This document shows, one piece after another, positions 3,424 to 50,339 of a stretch of 64,000 nt of DNA; the stretch's first letter is position 1; each line of letters opens with the position of its first letter. Origin of the DNA: a virus; the IMG/VR virus record IMGVR_UViG_3300025010_000004, positions 49,295 to 113,294 of that record, one strand, 5' to 3'. The notes below the pieces were generated by a model that made no database searches, was not told where the DNA came from, and saw only the letters and a program-made list of their open reading frames with translations. The position numbers were made by a program, and so were the translations under genes.

Positions 3424-4017
3424 TTACCCTTTATCTGAAAATAAGTCCAGTTGTAGCTCAGATTTGGGCTCCTCAGCTATGGTTTCTTTTTCTATGACAG
3501 GGGCAATATAGTCCTCTATCTTAAATTTCTTAGCTGCGGTCTTTAGAGGAGGCGAATATCCCCAACTTAACGGTTTTTCCTGCGCCAGAAATTTGGACAA
3601 TTTGAGCTTAGGCATGCGGGGCACGGTCAAATCTTTTTTGTCGTACATGTAAATTTTACATGCGTTAGCTATGCTGTCCTCCATAGAGCCTCTAGTAACC
3701 AGGAGATTTAGCCTCTCTGCTTCTATGAAAATGGCCCACATATCACGCTTGAAATCAGCGCGTATTGCTTCAGGCACGTAATCGTAACTGCATACCCACA
3801 ATTTACACTGCAGTGCCTTTACAGTGCATCCCCCAATCCCAAGGTATTTACAGTTAACGCAGCAGAAGTTTTCTCCTTCCCTTCTACGATGACGCTCGCA
3901 AGCTCCGCCGCTAATATGGCATGGATCGTAGTCAACCAGAAGTTGCAAAGTTCTATCATACAGATTGTTGAAAATAGGGATGAGCTTTTTAGCGTAGTCG
4001 TATTCTCCTACTGGCAT
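3424..4017 (-). CDS. Cys-rich hypothetical protein (possible Fe-S/Zn binding)
   Basis: PC..GAC..FCCVNCKYL...GCTVKALQCKLWVC; RBS AAGGAGG. Confidence 0.7.
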   Translation of the reverse strand: MPVGEYDYAKKLIPIFNNLYDRTLQLLVDYDPCHISGGACERHRRREGENFCCVNCKYLGIGGCTVKALQCKLWVCSYDYVPEAIRADFKRDMWAIFIEAERLNLLVTRGSMEDSIANACKIYMYDKKDLTVPRMPKLKLSKFLAQEKPLSWGYSPPLKTAAKKFKIEDYIAPVIEKETIAEEPKSELQLDLFSDKG

Positions 4018-4361: not shown

Positions 4362-5738
4362 CTACTCGATGGTTATAAGGTACGTTCCAGTATCCTTTGC
4401 ATTATCTTTTTTGGTTGTCTTTGCCGGCGTGTTCTCGTAAGTTACAGCAGACACTTTTTCTTCGACTTTTCGCACAAGATCAACCTCGACCACACCTTTA
4501 GGCTTCACTCCCCTTCTAGCCTTCGGTTTAACCTCAGCCACTACTGCCGCTTCTTCTACCTTCTTTTTAGCTGCTGGCTTCTTAGTCACAACAGGCGGAG
4601 GTAGAACTTCTTCTACCTTTGGAGGCTCTACTACAGGTGCTTCAATTTTGTTTATATGTACAATCTTATTTCCAGGTATGTACCCCTTGTAGTTGTACGT
4701 GCTTCCTACACGGGTCCAATCTGCATGCTTACTGGCCAGCCCAAACACGAAGTCTCCAGCAGTTTCGTCGTAGCAAACAGAAAAGTCTTTACGTTGATTA
4801 TCACAATTAGGTAACGGGCACCAAGGAACTTTAACGTCACCAAGGGCTTCATGATAAACCGCAGGAACTCTGTAGTCGCAGAGAGTATCCATAGAGTATA
4901 ATTCAGTCTTTCCCTGTTTCTTCATGGCTTCGATTACCTGGGTTCTATATGCAGCCGATACGCATTTAACATCCCCATAATACGGGTATTCATCTTTGGC
5001 CATATTTTTACGGTATATCATCCACCTTGCGACTGGCTTTCCATCTACCATGAGATAGCAACCTTTAGCGTAGGGCTGGTAGTGATACCACGCAGAAGGG
5101 TAAACCCCAGTATCATCAGCCACTTTAGGCCAAACCTTTCGGCTAATGTCTCCCCAATAGTCGTTTCCGACTCCCATGCAAGAGCCAGGAACTTTGGTCT
5201 TGTACATTGTGTAGTAGTCTCTGACGGAGTTACATACCACTATCGCAGAAGGTAAGAAGCTGTCGGACACCATTTTGGCTAAATCTCTCACTTGTGCGTC
5301 TCCATAACCAAGCTCCTTTAAATTTGTGTAGTCAGCCACAAGTTTGGCGAATGTGGTAATCTCCCACTTTAACGCTAGCTTAACTGCTCGCTCTGGAGTT
5401 GCAAACCTAACCTCCGTCTTTGGGTCTTTCAGAATTTTGGTTATATATTCAAGCACGTCTTCTGCTTTGAAGTTAGCTTTAATGTTAGGGTATACCCTAA
5501 CCTTGTCGGGATCGGATTTTACAGGGAGGGCAAGGGGCATTTCCGGCTTTACTTTGTAGCCGTAGCCTGCTCCTTCAATAACACCTTTTATCTTCTTGGT
5601 GACATTTGCCTTTATCTTCGGCAATGTTATTGCAAGCCGGAGGAACTTTTCAGCAGGCTTACCCACAACTTCTTTTGACTTCTCTGCTGTCTCAGGTTTG
5701 AGTTTGCCGAGTGCGTCCTTGTAAAATTTAAGTGCCAC
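4362..5738 (-). CDS. hypothetical phage protein with SCM motif and Pro/Lys-rich tail
   Basis: 458 aa, GTG start with AAGGAGG RBS; GSCMG...YLMVDGKPVARWMIY. Confidence 0.8.
   Translation of the reverse strand: MALKFYKDALGKLKPETAEKSKEVVGKPAEKFLRLAITLPKIKANVTKKIKGVIEGAGYGYKVKPEMPLALPVKSDPDKVRVYPNIKANFKAEDVLEYITKILKDPKTEVRFATPERAVKLALKWEITTFAKLVADYTNLKELGYGDAQVRDLAKMVSDSFLPSAIVVCNSVRDYYTMYKTKVPGSCMGVGNDYWGDISRKVWPKVADDTGVYPSAWYHYQPYAKGCYLMVDGKPVARWMIYRKNMAKDEYPYYGDVKCVSAAYRTQVIEAMKKQGKTELYSMDTLCDYRVPAVYHEALGDVKVPWCPLPNCDNQRKDFSVCYDETAGDFVFGLASKHADWTRVGSTYNYKGYIPGNKIVHINKIEAPVVEPPKVEEVLPPPVVTKKPAAKKKVEEAAVVAEVKPKARRGVKPKGVVEVDLVRKVEEKVSAVTYENTPAKTTKKDNAKDTGTYLITIE
4601..4616. promoter_or_regulatory. 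GTAGAA-N4-TTCTAC palindrome (intragenic)
   Basis: AG-GTAGAACTTCTTCTAC-CT inside 4362..5738. Confidence 0.5.
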
Positions 5739-18300: not shown

Positions 18301-18723
18301 CTATTGTGCTTCGTTTTTGTCGTAGATAGCGGCATACAAGGGTATATTGGCCGTGCAGCACTGTGAGTTGTAGGCTGCCAAATCGTAGCCTACAACTGCG
18401 AACGCCTTGTACATCATTATCCATAGCTTGAGTTCGGCTATCCTTTTGCGGACTGCCTTGCCGAACACGTAGAAGCGGATGGTGCGTATGATTGGGAGGC
18501 GCAGAATAGCATATTCTGCTACTGTTGGTAGTCCTTCGTATCTATTACATCTATGCCCTTTTATACTTATCCACGGGCAGGAGTCGCACTTAAGATTACT
18601 TACTTTGCACAAAGAACAACCCGTATAGGTCGTCTTGTGCGTGTATTTACGATACTCCACTATAAGCTGTTCCATAGCCTTGATATTCTCTTTGACGTTT
18701 ACCGGGGCCTTAAGCAGTCGCAT
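18301..18723 (-). CDS. hypothetical protein with CxxC..CxxCPW motif
   Basis: CSLC....CDSCPW; overlaps upstream stop. Confidence 0.65.
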   Translation of the reverse strand: MRLLKAPVNVKENIKAMEQLIVEYRKYTHKTTYTGCSLCKVSNLKCDSCPWISIKGHRCNRYEGLPTVAEYAILRLPIIRTIRFYVFGKAVRKRIAELKLWIMMYKAFAVVGYDLAAYNSQCCTANIPLYAAIYDKNEAQ

Positions 18724-20086
18724 TTTTGATTTCTCCTTTTTCTATGAGGGTTTTAGTGTATAACAGCCCGTCTTCCCTTGTCAAGAACTTTTCTTCCATT
18801 TGGTCTTCATACAGCCGTTGGAGGATAGCGCCGAAATGTTTTCCAGGCTCCATGCCCATATCAATAAGGTCTCGGCCAAGAATAATCGGGGTGACTTGTG
18901 ATTTTATTTCCTCGAACACGCGCATGACCTCAGAAATCCTAGCTGAGTTTTCAGGCTCATATTCAGCGGCTACAACACCACCACGTCCAAGCCTATCCGC
19001 CTTGTGCAATTTTACTAGCTTATACATGTCAACCGAGGCGGCCAACTTGCGCACAGCCTTACGGCTCACCCCTGCTTTCTTAAAATCGTAAGGCCTCATG
19101 TGATGCTTAATGAGATTTATAGCGGATTCAGTAAGTCCTATCTCATTTGTTAGCCGAGCGATAGCCTTTTCAGCCAAAGAAGTCTCTTCCGCGTGACCTT
19201 TGAAATGAATCTTACCGCTGTCTTCTGTGTTGACCTCATTAGGAACAAGCCCCTTCCCTAAATCATGAAATAAGAGGGCCAGCATAATATCCAATTCCCT
19301 GTCAATAACAGGAATGGCATCTATTGCCATAAGGGTGTGATTATACACGGAACCTTCTGGATGATACGTGCTTCCTTGTTCAATTTTCTTGGTAGCGACC
19401 AGCTCAGGAAACAGTACATCGAGAATGTCCATAGCCTCAAGCGTCTTGAAGAAAACGGATGGAAGAGGAGCGTTCATTAGAACTCGCACCACTTCATTAA
19501 ACACTCGTTCCTGAGGCAGAGCTTTAACTTTAATTGGGCCGTGTACTTTGCATAGCGCCATTGTTTGAGCTTCTATGTTCATGAACGGGTAAATAGCCTT
19601 GAACCTCGCTACTCTCAATATACGCAAAGGGTCTTCCATGAATGTGCCAACATTCACGTGCTTTATGCGCAAGATACGAAGGTCAGGTATCCCATTAAAC
19701 GGGTCTTCGAACTTACCCGTCAACGGATCGAGGTAAATAGCGTTCATCGTCAAGTCCCTACGAACCGCTGCCAAGCTCAACGGCAGCTCTTCGCGTATCC
19801 TAGCGGTTAGATCACGGTGTCCTTCGCCAGTTTGCTCATCAAGCCTCGGCAGGCTAACGTCAATATCTTTGACTTTGTAAACTCCGTATTGCTTGCCTAC
19901 GTAGTTGACCTCACCGAAAGTTTCGAGAACTGCTTCGAGCTTCTCGGCTGAGAGGTTGAAAACTTCAATGTCTATGTCGGTGGAAGGTATGCCTAGGAGT
20001 AAATTTCTTACGTGGCCTCCTGTATAAAAAACTGAACCTCCCGCCTTGTGAATTGCCAACGATAGTTCAAGCGCAAACTTTTGCAT
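18710..20086 (-). CDS. cca: CCA-adding tRNA nucleotidyltransferase with HD domain
   Basis: GGHVRNLLLG...DIDIE, RRDLTMNAI, EDPLRILRVARF, ERV..E, HPEG.V..HT, HDLGK. Confidence 0.92.
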   Translation of the reverse strand: MQKFALELSLAIHKAGGSVFYTGGHVRNLLLGIPSTDIDIEVFNLSAEKLEAVLETFGEVNYVGKQYGVYKVKDIDVSLPRLDEQTGEGHRDLTARIREELPLSLAAVRRDLTMNAIYLDPLTGKFEDPFNGIPDLRILRIKHVNVGTFMEDPLRILRVARFKAIYPFMNIEAQTMALCKVHGPIKVKALPQERVFNEVVRVLMNAPLPSVFFKTLEAMDILDVLFPELVATKKIEQGSTYHPEGSVYNHTLMAIDAIPVIDRELDIMLALLFHDLGKGLVPNEVNTEDSGKIHFKGHAEETSLAEKAIARLTNEIGLTESAINLIKHHMRPYDFKKAGVSRKAVRKLAASVDMYKLVKLHKADRLGRGGVVAAEYEPENSARISEVMRVFEEIKSQVTPIILGRDLIDMGMEPGKHFGAILQRLYEDQMEEKFLTREDGLLYTKTLIEKGEIKNATA

Positions 20087-20334: not shown

Positions 20335-20595
20335 TCAGTCGAATCGCACCGTTGCGCCTTTGAAAAGAATACCTGAGCAAACAGTACCGTTAACGCTTGA
20401 TCCGTTGGGTGATTTTGCGGAAAATCCCGTATGATAAAAATCATCATCTGAGCAGGCAAAGAAGTTGTAGCCAGTAATTTGAATTTCTTTGTAGCCTTGC
20501 GCAGTCAGAACAGATGTTGCCTTCGATGCATCAGTGCAACCAGATAACAAACAGATGCAGCCCACCAACGTCATTGCCTTCATAGACTTTTTCAT
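20335..20595 (-). CDS. small phage lipoprotein
   Basis: Lipobox LSGC; GY..I.ITGY.FFACS.DD...TGF.A..G.VCSG. Confidence 0.8.
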   Translation of the reverse strand: MKKSMKAMTLVGCICLLSGCTDASKATSVLTAQGYKEIQITGYNFFACSDDDFYHTGFSAKSPNGSSVNGTVCSGILFKGATVRFD

Positions 20596-20619
20596 GTGTT
20601 TTCTCCTTTTATTGTTTAT

Positions 20620-20886
20620 TGCCTAGCTACCCAGCCTAGAGGAATCAGATGGCCAATCTACTAATGCCAAAGACCTTTACCTAGGATTTGAAAGACCTTT
20701 AAACTTTTCCACCTGAACTCTAAGGGTAAGACGCCTGAATATTGAGAGTTGAAGCCTGATCTTTAAGCTTTGAGCTTTGAAGACGGACGACTTTATAGGT
20801 CGTGTTAGCTTTTATATTCTCGCAATAAGAACGCTCTAACCCTTGCGTTAGGGGAGTAGAGTTTACTGATTTCGGGCAACTAGGCA
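20620..20886 (-). ncRNA. putative ~267-nt structured RNA with seven heptad repeats
   Basis: 13-bp terminal stem TGCCTAGTTGCCC/GGGTAGCTAGGCA (2 G.U), internal hairpins, heptads at 20733-20781. Confidence 0.7.
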
Positions 20887-20893
20887 GTGTTGA

Positions 20894-21517
20894 TTATTCC
20901 GGTACTTCTACCTCAGTGATAGCGTTGCTTGTTGAAAGCGCCAGGTCAACTTCTCCCTCGAACTCGAAAATGTACTTCTGTAGCTTTTCGATCTCTTCAC
21001 GAATAGTGATCTGGTCGATTATGGAGTAGAGGTTGTTTTCCTTGAAGTTCTCTTCAAACTTCTTGTCGGCTTCGTGGTCAACCTTTCCTTCTTTACCACG
21101 CGCCACTTTGAGCATTTCGTCAAGCCGCGCGTTGGCGTCTTTGTTACCTGTTTCGATTGCCTTCGATATCTTGCCGAACTGGTTACGCAACTCATTGAGC
21201 AACTGCTTCTGGTACTCAATACTGGACTTTCGCTCAATAGCGTCGGCGACGGTGTAAGTAGTGCCAGCAATATCAACTGTCGTTGTAGCGTTGCTGACGA
21301 CTATGATGGCCTTGATCTTGTTGCGCCTATCAACAAGAGCGGTAACTGAATCGTAGCAGCCTTTGATCGTTTCCTTTACCTTTGCCTCATCAGTGAACCC
21401 TGCCGGTAGCGTCTTACCAACTTTCAGCGAGACGAATATACCGCCTGCAATTCCATGCTCGATGCGCTTGCCGAGCGTCTTCAACTCTACCAACAGTGCT
21501 GCGATTGACTTCTTCAT
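20894..21517 (-). CDS. DIP1984/DUF6847-like coiled-coil protein
   Basis: SIAALL.ELK.L..RI, I..SNATT.V...TVADAIERK, EVD.ALS.SNA.T. Confidence 0.7.
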   Translation of the reverse strand: MKKSIAALLVELKTLGKRIEHGIAGGIFVSLKVGKTLPAGFTDEAKVKETIKGCYDSVTALVDRRNKIKAIIVVSNATTTVDIAGTTYTVADAIERKSSIEYQKQLLNELRNQFGKISKAIETGNKDANARLDEMLKVARGKEGKVDHEADKKFEENFKENNLYSIIDQITIREEIEKLQKYIFEFEGEVDLALSTSNAITEVEVPE

Positions 21518-21543
21518 TGATTGTTACCTCCTGAGGTTTGATT

Positions 21544-21559
21544 GTAGAACAAGTTCTAC
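21544..21559. promoter_or_regulatory. GTAGAA-N4-TTCTAC palindrome
   Basis: Contains stop of 21556..21891. Confidence 0.8.
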
Positions 21560-49019: not shown

Positions 49020-50339
49020 ATGAACGAAATTGAAGTTCTTAAACGTGAAATTGCTGAGCTTACTCAGCTGATGCAAACTAAGGCGCAGGCTGGGCAGTCC
49101 GCAGAAGTTAAAGAGCTTAGCGAAAAATTCGCAGCTCTTGAGTCTGCCGTTGCTGAGCGGAAGTTCAAATTTGATACCGCTGAGAAATCTCAGGTTGGTA
49201 TCTCTAAAGAAGCTGAGAAGAAGCTTGACGAACTTTTCATTGCCTCTGCTCTGCTTGTCCGTAAAGATGGCCGGCTCGACAAAGATGCTTACGCATCTAT
49301 CGCTGCTGCTCCTGACTATCGTGACGTACTCAAGGACGCCGTAGCTCTCCCTAACCAGGGTACTAGCTCTTCGCAGACTACTGCTGATGCAGTAGGTGGC
49401 GACTTTATTCCTTCTGGGTTCTCTTCTACCCTTCTTGAAGAAATCTGGCTCAAACTTGAAATCGCAGCTCTGTTTGATCGGTTCAATATGACCGCTTCAA
49501 CCTACACCTTCCCGTTTGCACCTGACCGTTTGGTTGCTCGTAAAGGTACTGAGGGTGCTGCGGTTTCTAAAGACCGCTTCGCAACCGACCAGATTATCTT
49601 CACCGCGAAGAAAATCATGGCGAACGTTGACTTCACTGACGAAATCGAGCAGGACAGCATTATAGCTATGCTTCCTCTTGTTCGTCGGAAGCTCATCGAA
49701 GGGTTCGCTATTGGTCAGGAGCAGATCTGTCTTAACGGTGATGTTACCTCTGGTGCCACTAACATTAACGGCGACCTAGATAGTACTCCGCAGGATATTC
49801 GCCTCACTGTGTCTGGTATCCGTAAGTCTGGTGCTTCACATATGTACAGCCTGGCTTCTGGTGGGCTGAGCGCCGACAACCTTCGGCTGCTTCGTACTAA
49901 AATGGGCAAGTATGGTAAAAACCCGTCCGACCTGTGCTACATCGTTAGCATGCAGGACTACAACAAGATTCTTGGGTTTGCAAACTACCAGACCCTTTAT
50001 CAGTATGGGCCTAACGCAGTAATCTTCACCGGAGAACTCGGAAGACTTGACGGAATCCCTGTTATCGTTACAGAGCTTCTGCCTTCGTCTGACGGTACTG
50101 CTACTACCGGCGTTAATGCCTCTGGCATTACTGACGCTACTGCAGAAAACAATGTCAAAAACATCTGTGGCCTTGTTAACAAGAATGCGTTTATGTGGGG
50201 AGATCGTAAATCGTTCGGTCTCGAAACCTTCCGTAACCCGTTCAACCAGATGACCTCCCTCATTGGTAGTCAGCGTCTAGACTTCCAGAAGGTTCTTACT
50301 TCTACCGATCCTACTGCGGTTTGGGGTATCAACTACTAA
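49020..50339 (+). CDS. major capsid protein (HK97 fold)
   Basis: N-terminal delta domain, GGDFIP, LNGD, GRLDGIPVIV; strong codon bias. Confidence 0.93.
   Translation: MNEIEVLKREIAELTQLMQTKAQAGQSAEVKELSEKFAALESAVAERKFKFDTAEKSQVGISKEAEKKLDELFIASALLVRKDGRLDKDAYASIAAAPDYRDVLKDAVALPNQGTSSSQTTADAVGGDFIPSGFSSTLLEEIWLKLEIAALFDRFNMTASTYTFPFAPDRLVARKGTEGAAVSKDRFATDQIIFTAKKIMANVDFTDEIEQDSIIAMLPLVRRKLIEGFAIGQEQICLNGDVTSGATNINGDLDSTPQDIRLTVSGIRKSGASHMYSLASGGLSADNLRLLRTKMGKYGKNPSDLCYIVSMQDYNKILGFANYQTLYQYGPNAVIFTGELGRLDGIPVIVTELLPSSDGTATTGVNASGITDATAENNVKNICGLVNKNAFMWGDRKSFGLETFRNPFNQMTSLIGSQRLDFQKVLTSTDPTAVWGINY

Follow-up and report, generated by a model that had tools for sequence, protein, structure and literature searches.

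A gene for a 207-aa protein and a structured RNA of 267 nt directly behind it form a module that is real, widespread and nearly uncatalogued. The RNA is confirmed to have a closing helix, two pseudoknots and a conserved 3′ domain. Its linkage to the gene is obligate, and no functional RNA-only locus was found in searches from the gene side or from the RNA side.

The module lies in a window of 64,000 nt (positions 49,295 to 113,294 of virus record IMGVR_UViG_3300025010_000004). The source genome is a complete virus record of 113,294 bp with terminal repeats, recovered from groundwater, and the window is its right part. The sequencing runs listed for this genome are of groundwater and sediment DNA. 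The phage has six tRNAs and a single copy each of the gene and the RNA, and all genes of the stretch around the module are on the minus strand. The features below are numbered by window position, with nt counted from the 5′ end of the RNA.

20620..20886, minus: structured RNA, whole, 267 nt (nhmmer family match, E 1e-39; bounds from the closing helix)
20620..20633, minus: 3′ arm of closing helix P1, UGGGUAGCUAGGCA (nt 254-267), 14 bp with the 5′ arm
20634..20685, minus: 3′ domain with P5 CCUAG (20681-20685)/CUAGG (20635-20639), P6 AGG/CCU and P7 GGC/GCC
20643..20648, minus: 3′ strand of pseudoknot PK2, CUGAUU (nt 239-244), within the 3′ domain, pairing with AAUCAG
20686..20732, minus: linker between the heptad tract and the 3′ domain, with further heptad-like units, CUUAGAG UUCAGGU .. 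UUUAAAG, whose phase is shifted (from sequence and alignment columns)
20733..20781, minus: heptad tract, 7 units (nt 106-154; lag-7 test)
20782..20829, minus: variable region with two local hairpins, longer in relatives (from the alignment)
20830..20853, minus: H-type pseudoknot, S1 CCC (34-36)/GGG (45-47) and S2 AACGC (38-42)/GCGUU (53-57) (from relatives)
20866..20871, minus: 5′ strand of PK2, AAUCAG (nt 16-21), partner CUGAUU at 20643-20648
20873..20886, minus: 5′ arm of P1, UGCCUAGUUGCCCG (nt 1-14), pairing with 20620-20633
20894..21517, minus: partner gene, 207 aa, stop TAA (ORF call)
21515..21542, minus: four in-phase heptad-like units, AUCAAAC CUCAGGA GGUAACA AUCAAUG, spanning the Shine-Dalgarno sequence and AUG (from sequence)
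21545..21558, minus: palindrome TAGAAC-TT-GTTCTA upstream of the partner gene (from sequence)

The next gene (20335-20595, minus; 86 aa, phrog_902, with a lipoprotein-like N-terminus) starts 24 nt past the RNA and has a strong ribosome-binding site (RBS). Because of this strong RBS, and because no terminator lies between them, read-through from the RNA into this gene is likely. A CCA-adding enzyme with PolyA_pol head, RNA-binding and HD domains is encoded at 18710-20086 (minus), 0.5 kb downstream of the RNA. When the locus was compared by blastn with 50,697 phage records, a set from which the phage's own or very near genome records are possibly absent, no match was found.

Fold of the RNA and phase of the heptad tract

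The 298-nt spacer behind the gene folds with -80.8 kcal/mol on the minus strand (z -3.28 against shuffles); on the plus strand z is -1.82. A reading of the sequence alone (the sequence-only reading below), which was partly supported overall, had described an ORF-free RNA segment whose ends pair, beginning 7 nt past the stop. Both observations were borne out: the spacer from the TAA to the RNA is UCAACAC, and the closing helix has 14 bp. It includes three G·U pairs that are possible only on the gene strand, as the same reading had noticed. Among 48 non-redundant aligned family members, of which the window RNA is the shortest (family range 267-465 nt), P1 was 90.9% paired, with both sides changed in 12 of its 14 pairs. 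The G·U at its inner end is conserved in 41 of the 48 sequences. Such conserved G·U pairs fix the transcribed strand.

PK2 ties the 5′ end to the 3′ domain. Most members have a PK2 helix of 5-10 bp, with sequences that differ among them, and none of 2000 permutations reached the observed mean. A CUAAC/GUUAG hairpin had been proposed; the relatives instead support an H-type pseudoknot, formed by CCC/GGG and AACGC/GCGUU, with a conserved GGGUUA between its elements. Many members show this arrangement of stems, and S2 covaries among them (GGAGAGC/GCUCUCC and UGUGGUUA/UAACCACA are two examples); the search for it in single sequences was noisy (mean score 29.8 vs 24.1 for shuffles). Two other proposed hairpins, UUCUU/GAGAA and ACGAC/GUCGU, fall in the variable region and are unconserved.

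In the 3′ domain, the CCUAG/CUAGG helix (P5; CCNNG/CNNGG in the family) had been recognized from the window alone, and it proved to be 97.1% paired over the 48 sequences, with covariation in 4 of its 5 pairs. P6 (58% paired) and P7 (48%) are weaker and limited by the alignment. The best-conserved sequence of the family, GAUAAAAUCC, is in this domain; the window has UUUCAAAUCC, the first five bases of which are in the upstream linker. For the whole proposed structure (48 members, alignment A3), 80% of cells were paired compared with 58.7% in shuffles, and 0 of 500 shuffles were as high. Controls with slid partners gave 36-46%. The sequence AAAGGUCUUU occurs twice within 20669-20700 (minus), 22 nt apart (RNA nt 187-196 and 209-218), flanking the CCUAG strand.

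The seven units of the heptad tract are UUCAAAG CUCAAAG CUUAAAG AUCAGGC UUCAACU CUCAAUA UUCAGGC. Their exact 7-nt phase, another observation of the sequence-only reading, held up: lag-7 self-match over the 49 nt was 0.57 (0.51 at lag 14) against 0.26 in shuffles, and none of 5000 shuffles was as high. TRF reported only the first 3.4 units. The unit consensus is N-U-Y-A-A-R-N, and the family logo gives U2 0.89, Y3 0.85, A4 0.88 and A5 0.77. The number of units per member, roughly counted, is 6 to 16, with a median of 9. This variable number implies no fixed stoichiometry. It weakens the suggestion that one heptad serves each subunit of a fixed oligomer, as does the acidity of the protein family (median pI 5.65).

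The tract is A-rich and shows no consensus pairing across the family alignment. It had been described as apparently unpaired. In thermodynamic folding across the family the tract is slightly more open (0.43 vs 0.37, 42 of 48 members); in single-sequence folding of the window RNA it is no more open than the rest (0.36 vs 0.35). Since the openness is only slight, a single-stranded state of the tract is to be taken as probable at most.

Linkage of gene and RNA in phages and bacteria

The closest relative found at first, L001, whose protein is 47% identical, has a look-alike RNA with its closing helix rewritten by compensatory changes. With an iterated nhmmer profile, the RNA was detected directly downstream of the gene and on the same strand in 157 of 162 loci (80 of 82 viral and 77 of 80 bacterial). 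The RNA was seen by eye in three of the five misses (L042, the near-identical L055, and L151); in the remaining two, the copy is cut by an insertion (L122) or the contig ends (L145). The RNA starts about 1-85 nt past the gene stop in nearly all loci.

For the opposite direction, a degenerate pattern for the 3′ domain was used, which led to 34 viral loci. The gene was upstream of all 24 pattern RNAs that were confirmed by nhmmer and had upstream room; it was adjacent in 23 of them and separated by a 1.9-kb insert in one (L191). Four gene-less pattern matches (L166, L170, L181 and L190) were unconfirmed by nhmmer and were therefore rejected as chance. The family is defined by the closing helix, PK2, the covarying CCNNG/CNNGG helix, phased UYAA units and a phrog_1491 gene upstream, and the window copy has all of these.

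The distribution in chromosomes was surveyed in 49 species representatives of the genus of B. safensis, using R1, a covariance model built on the 3′ domain, together with a protein profile. Fifteen species had both parts, adjacent to each other, 33 had neither, and one had an RNA-only remnant. In this last genome (L198, G023:C4:199500-201600), at a site syntenic with that of B. safensis, an 870-bp deletion has left only the 3′ domain of the RNA; its 5′ half and the gene are gone. The module is therefore dispensable there. In seven genomes of the B. pumilus group, the pair is found at a single syntenic location outside prophages, flanked by an amino-acid permease and by a subtilase region, and the neighbours of the module elsewhere are different. 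The module is therefore self-contained and is acquired and lost as a unit. The sequence-only reading had named homologous genes without a downstream RNA as the finding that would speak against it. Instead, the RNA stands behind the gene in essentially every locus, whichever of the two was searched for, and at the genome level the two were lost together.

Among phages, the module is carried by T5 itself and by the T5-like phage SP15; 440 T5-like records match this type of copy, and the RNA stretch is almost always unannotated in them. Other large phages have it, as do chromosomes of Bacillus, Lysinibacillus, Brevibacillus and others. In T5 (L197, AY692264.1, 836-1633) the partner gene is unannotated, and an opposite-strand gene, T5p083, has been called over it; the RNA stretch of AY692264.1 is annotated only with "putative promoter" features. 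The T5 module is just outside the st0 deletion. The anti-retron protein Rad of T5 (Azam et al.; 189 aa, ORF75 of SP15) was considered as a candidate and is different from the 212-aa E0157_083.

Individual loci depart from the usual arrangement. In L001, a 78-aa ORF is inserted between gene and RNA (3618-3854), and a perfect 18-bp inverted repeat, TGCGACATGTCGCACTAA (3837/4218), brackets the RNA outside the closing helix. In Desulfogranum japonicum (L122:5615-5900), the RNA ends past the heptads at unrelated sequence, probably a mobile element, and the gene looks intact. A Parabacteroides MAG contig has two tandem nhmmer matches behind one gene (L119:5053-5317 and 5478-5680), possibly a duplicated RNA.

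Co-oriented tRNAs were present within 2.5 kb in 34 of 55 loci, and seven tRNAs start 3-10 nt after the 3′ end of the RNA. Three members have a gene enclosed in the variable region: L019 and L038 each a tRNA, and L080 a tRNA-like gene whose anticodon loop is irregular. The phage tRNA-cluster home, these embedded and abutting tRNAs and the CCA-adding enzyme suggest a function in the metabolism of tRNA or RNA in the infected cell, so that we infer a link of the module to tRNAs. Other neighbours were also observed: a FuFi-1 RNA (RF02986, 68 bits) that shortly precedes the module in one gut phage (L058:2146-2318, minus), an AbiEii-like nucleotidyltransferase after it in Brevibacillus (L106:6660-7556), and a TOTE conflict-system primase-helicase after it in Pseudobacteroides (L117:6540-8339).

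The only Rfam 15 entry for the family is RAGATH-27 (RF03100), an orphan candidate sRNA of 86 positions. It describes the 5′-terminal part of this RNA as it occurs in a subgroup of gut phages, with the 5′ arm of P1, CGAAAAC, AAACUA and the next hairpin. In cmscan it scored 97 bits in L051, 88 in L072 and 80 in L043, compared with a gathering cut-off of 76.1. The RAGATH-27 model covers the first 86 nt, mostly as unstructured sequence, without the closing helix, the pseudoknots, the heptads or the 3′ domain. The window RNA matched nothing in Rfam, RAGATH-27 included, at the gathering threshold (whole window) or at E 10 (20500-21000). In a literature search, no main-text paper naming RAGATH-27 was found, and nothing relevant was found on the RNA, the protein family, the pair, heptamer-repeat phage RNAs or T5 transcriptomes. 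The earlier statement that no description was known is thus nearly right, the exception being this 86-nt fragment of one subgroup.

The partner protein and its remote homologues

The 207-aa protein matches phrog_1491 (E 6e-58) and had no match in Pfam, NCBIfam or PADLOC. The "tail fiber" label of phrog_1491 is probably spurious, because the T5 gene adjoins the tRNA region and the st0 deletion. AlphaFold models the protein (pLDDT 83) as a long bundle of helices, one end of which carries a small sheet. The protein-family profile gave only noise against PDB sequences, and Foldseek gave nothing at E 0.001 or better against the PDB. The VIA-align matches were generic helical bundles with Z no higher than 9.5, which is below the level that is meaningful for helical proteins, and the BFVD matches were uncharacterised phage homologues only. 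The family is mildly acidic, with a net charge of about -3 besides its low median pI.

The protein is probably a homodimer. The predicted dimer scored 0.65 compared with 0.00 for the best control, three runs shared at least 97% of contacts, and partner pLDDT was at least 89; in a benchmark, the mark applied was reached by 20 of 30 proteins whose solved structure is a pair of the same chain and by 1 of 23 whose solved structure is a single chain. We take this as support, not proof.

The protein had been called DIP1984-like. In the direct sense this was not confirmed: it matched neither the DIP1984 HMM (NF038048, curated cut-off 70 bits) nor that of DUF6847 (PF20935). Among 30 relatives, four reached only E 0.013 or worse against DIP1984 and one matched DUF6847. 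A remote relationship is nevertheless indicated by hhalign, which aligned the family to true DIP1984 proteins with 89.5% probability (E 2e-6, 114 columns; common SNAT..TVA(E/D)A) and to a 171-aa subfamily from Bacilli genomes with 93.8% (E 1.8e-7, 164 columns). By these profile comparisons, the window protein belongs to the DIP1984 superfamily as a remote member.

The RNAs of these homologues have an array with another motif. Most of 11 loci of the 171-aa subfamily show a closing helix of 9-14 bp, different in each, around a 7-nt array with a lag-7 self-match of about 0.5 and the unit U-N-A-C-C. Downstream of DIP1984 proper, the spacer is conserved and has NAC-type units about every 7 nt, less regularly. 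The RNA profile of the UYAA family matched the RNAs of neither group. Remote homologues thus have a stem-closed 7-nt array with another motif, and the array tracks the protein. From the arrays of the remote homologues, the common denominator of the superfamily is a stem-closed track of 7-nt units, the unit varying with the protein. This change of motif with the protein subfamily is the best available sign that the protein would read the units.

Heptad-like units are also found ahead of the gene. At least two perfect in-phase units were present in 14 of 48 gene leaders compared with 10 of 159 other leaders of the same loci (Fisher p 8e-5, the 48 leaders being phylogenetically non-independent). 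The T5 leader also shows in-phase units; the chromosomal copies examined in Bacillus have none. The palindrome that had been noticed before the gene is present in the window, next to these units. The leader units could possibly serve as an autoregulatory site.

A proposed ribonucleoprotein, its alternatives and known systems

Our preferred reading, to which we give a probability of about 60%, is that protein and RNA form a dedicated ribonucleoprotein, with the heptad array serving as a multivalent platform for the protein. ORF and RNA would be co-transcribed from the minus strand as one two-part module. The closing helix, PK2 and the H-type pseudoknot would form a compact RNA core, from which a long, probably single-stranded, A-rich loop with U-Y-A-A units every 7 nt may protrude. 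We infer that the helical-bundle protein, probably as a homodimer, binds its own RNA, most likely via the phased units. In the window phage, surplus protein might occupy the heptad-like units over its own RBS and so shut off its own translation. An acidic protein family is unusual for the coating of single-stranded RNA, and this counts against the platform reading.

More tentatively, the modules could represent a new ribonucleoprotein class of tRNA-carrying large phages and Bacillota. In this class, dimers of the DIP1984 superfamily would sit on a 7-nt track that a pseudoknotted scaffold holds as a closed loop, with the motif co-evolving with the protein. The complex may act on tRNAs or other RNAs in infection, for example, as a scaffold or as a decoy against tRNA-targeting defences. 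Whether the units imitate anticodon or T loops, or offer codons to tRNAs, is a matter of speculation.

Alternatively, the RNA could act alone, in the manner of the ornate RNAs ROOL and GOLLD, by self-assembly or catalysis. The protein would then be a co-expressed helper, such as a chaperone or stabiliser, or a partner linked in function that does not bind. The two pseudoknots, the highly conserved 3′ core, the acidity of the protein and the phage and tRNA neighbourhood with embedded tRNAs, as for GOLLD and ROOL (PMC5737381), fit such an RNA. The joint loss of the two parts and the failure of both search directions to yield a functional locus with the RNA by itself argue otherwise, as do the shift of the unit motif with the protein subfamily and the lack of a match to ROOL or GOLLD in Rfam, and we regard an RNA acting alone as unlikely. 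The gene-RNA pair could also be a conflict module resembling toxin-antitoxin systems, in which a harmful protein is checked by the repeat RNA for bacterial defence, phage counter-defence or addiction. It is a self-contained pair in phages and a stand-alone island in chromosomes, its occurrence is patchy (15 of 49 Bacillus species), and some copies adjoin the AbiEii-like nucleotidyltransferase or the TOTE conflict-system primase. However, the protein has no nuclease fold and no toxin match in PADLOC or Pfam, the RNA is downstream, and its non-identical 7-nt units are part of one large fold and not tandem pseudoknot repeats. The position is stable and syntenic in seven B. pumilus-group genomes, and the L122 gene is intact despite its cut RNA. 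A conflict module is thus quite improbable.

A further alternative is a cis-acting 3′ UTR element that controls only the stability, termination or translation of flanking messages. The RNA begins so close to the stop (7 nt here, and similarly near in almost every locus) that co-transcription is likely. A terminator comes directly after the RNA in B. safensis, and in the window the RBS of the next gene comes at once. On the other hand, 267-465 nt with two pseudoknots and a phased array far exceed the needs of such elements, and the downstream genes vary by locus (tRNAs, unrelated ORFs and opposite-strand genes). We consider a purely cis-acting role very improbable.

The module is present in T5, hundreds of phages and Bacillus-type chromosomes, yet neither part has an assigned function. 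A large structured RNA that is tied to one protein family, with a motif varying with the protein, offers a system for the study of periodic protein-RNA recognition, and it may reveal an undescribed step of phage tRNA or RNA biology.

Several known systems resemble the proposed ribonucleoprotein in part. ROOL and GOLLD, too, are large RNAs with pseudoknots that occur in phages and prophages, often close to tRNAs: GOLLD is often found near tRNAs and in prophages, and ROOL has similar properties (Weinberg et al. 2017, PMC5737381). Unlike the module, they lack both a heptad array and a protein gene as obligate partner, and the window has no match to their Rfam covariance models.

The comparison with type III toxin-antitoxin systems, drawn in the sequence-only reading, fails at their defining features. 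ToxI repeats are about 36 nt long, tandem and near-identical, and are upstream of the toxin gene, whereas the units of the module are 7 nt, degenerate, inside a 267-nt fold and downstream of the gene. An endoribonuclease fold of the ToxN/AbiQ/CptN type is absent, as judged from the helical-bundle model and the Pfam and PADLOC searches. The likeness of the type III systems (ToxIN, CptIN and TenpIN; PMC5086642) to the module is in the two-part composition of protein and repeat RNA, in bacteria and phages.

The combination of a protein with a dedicated noncoding RNA also recalls Ro60 (Rsr) and Y RNAs such as YrlA. Y RNAs are closed by a terminal stem and encoded beside rsr, in phages too. In one account, bacterial Y RNAs mimic tRNAs (PMC4201824). 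The window protein differs in having no TROVE match, the window RNA has no Y RNA or YrlA match in Rfam, and Y RNAs are without a heptad array.

For the array itself, the closest parallels are HutP on hut mRNA and TRAP on the trp leader in Bacillus, protein oligomers that read short motifs at fixed spacing on single-stranded RNA. The HutP sites are NAG every 7 nt. Both proteins form rings, and their sites are in leaders, where they control termination. For the window protein, the dimer was the only oligomer assessed, and its prediction passes; the protein is a helical bundle, unlike either HutP or TRAP. In contrast to their sites, the array of the module is carried by a stand-alone pseudoknotted RNA behind the gene, with the motif UYAA and a variable number of units.
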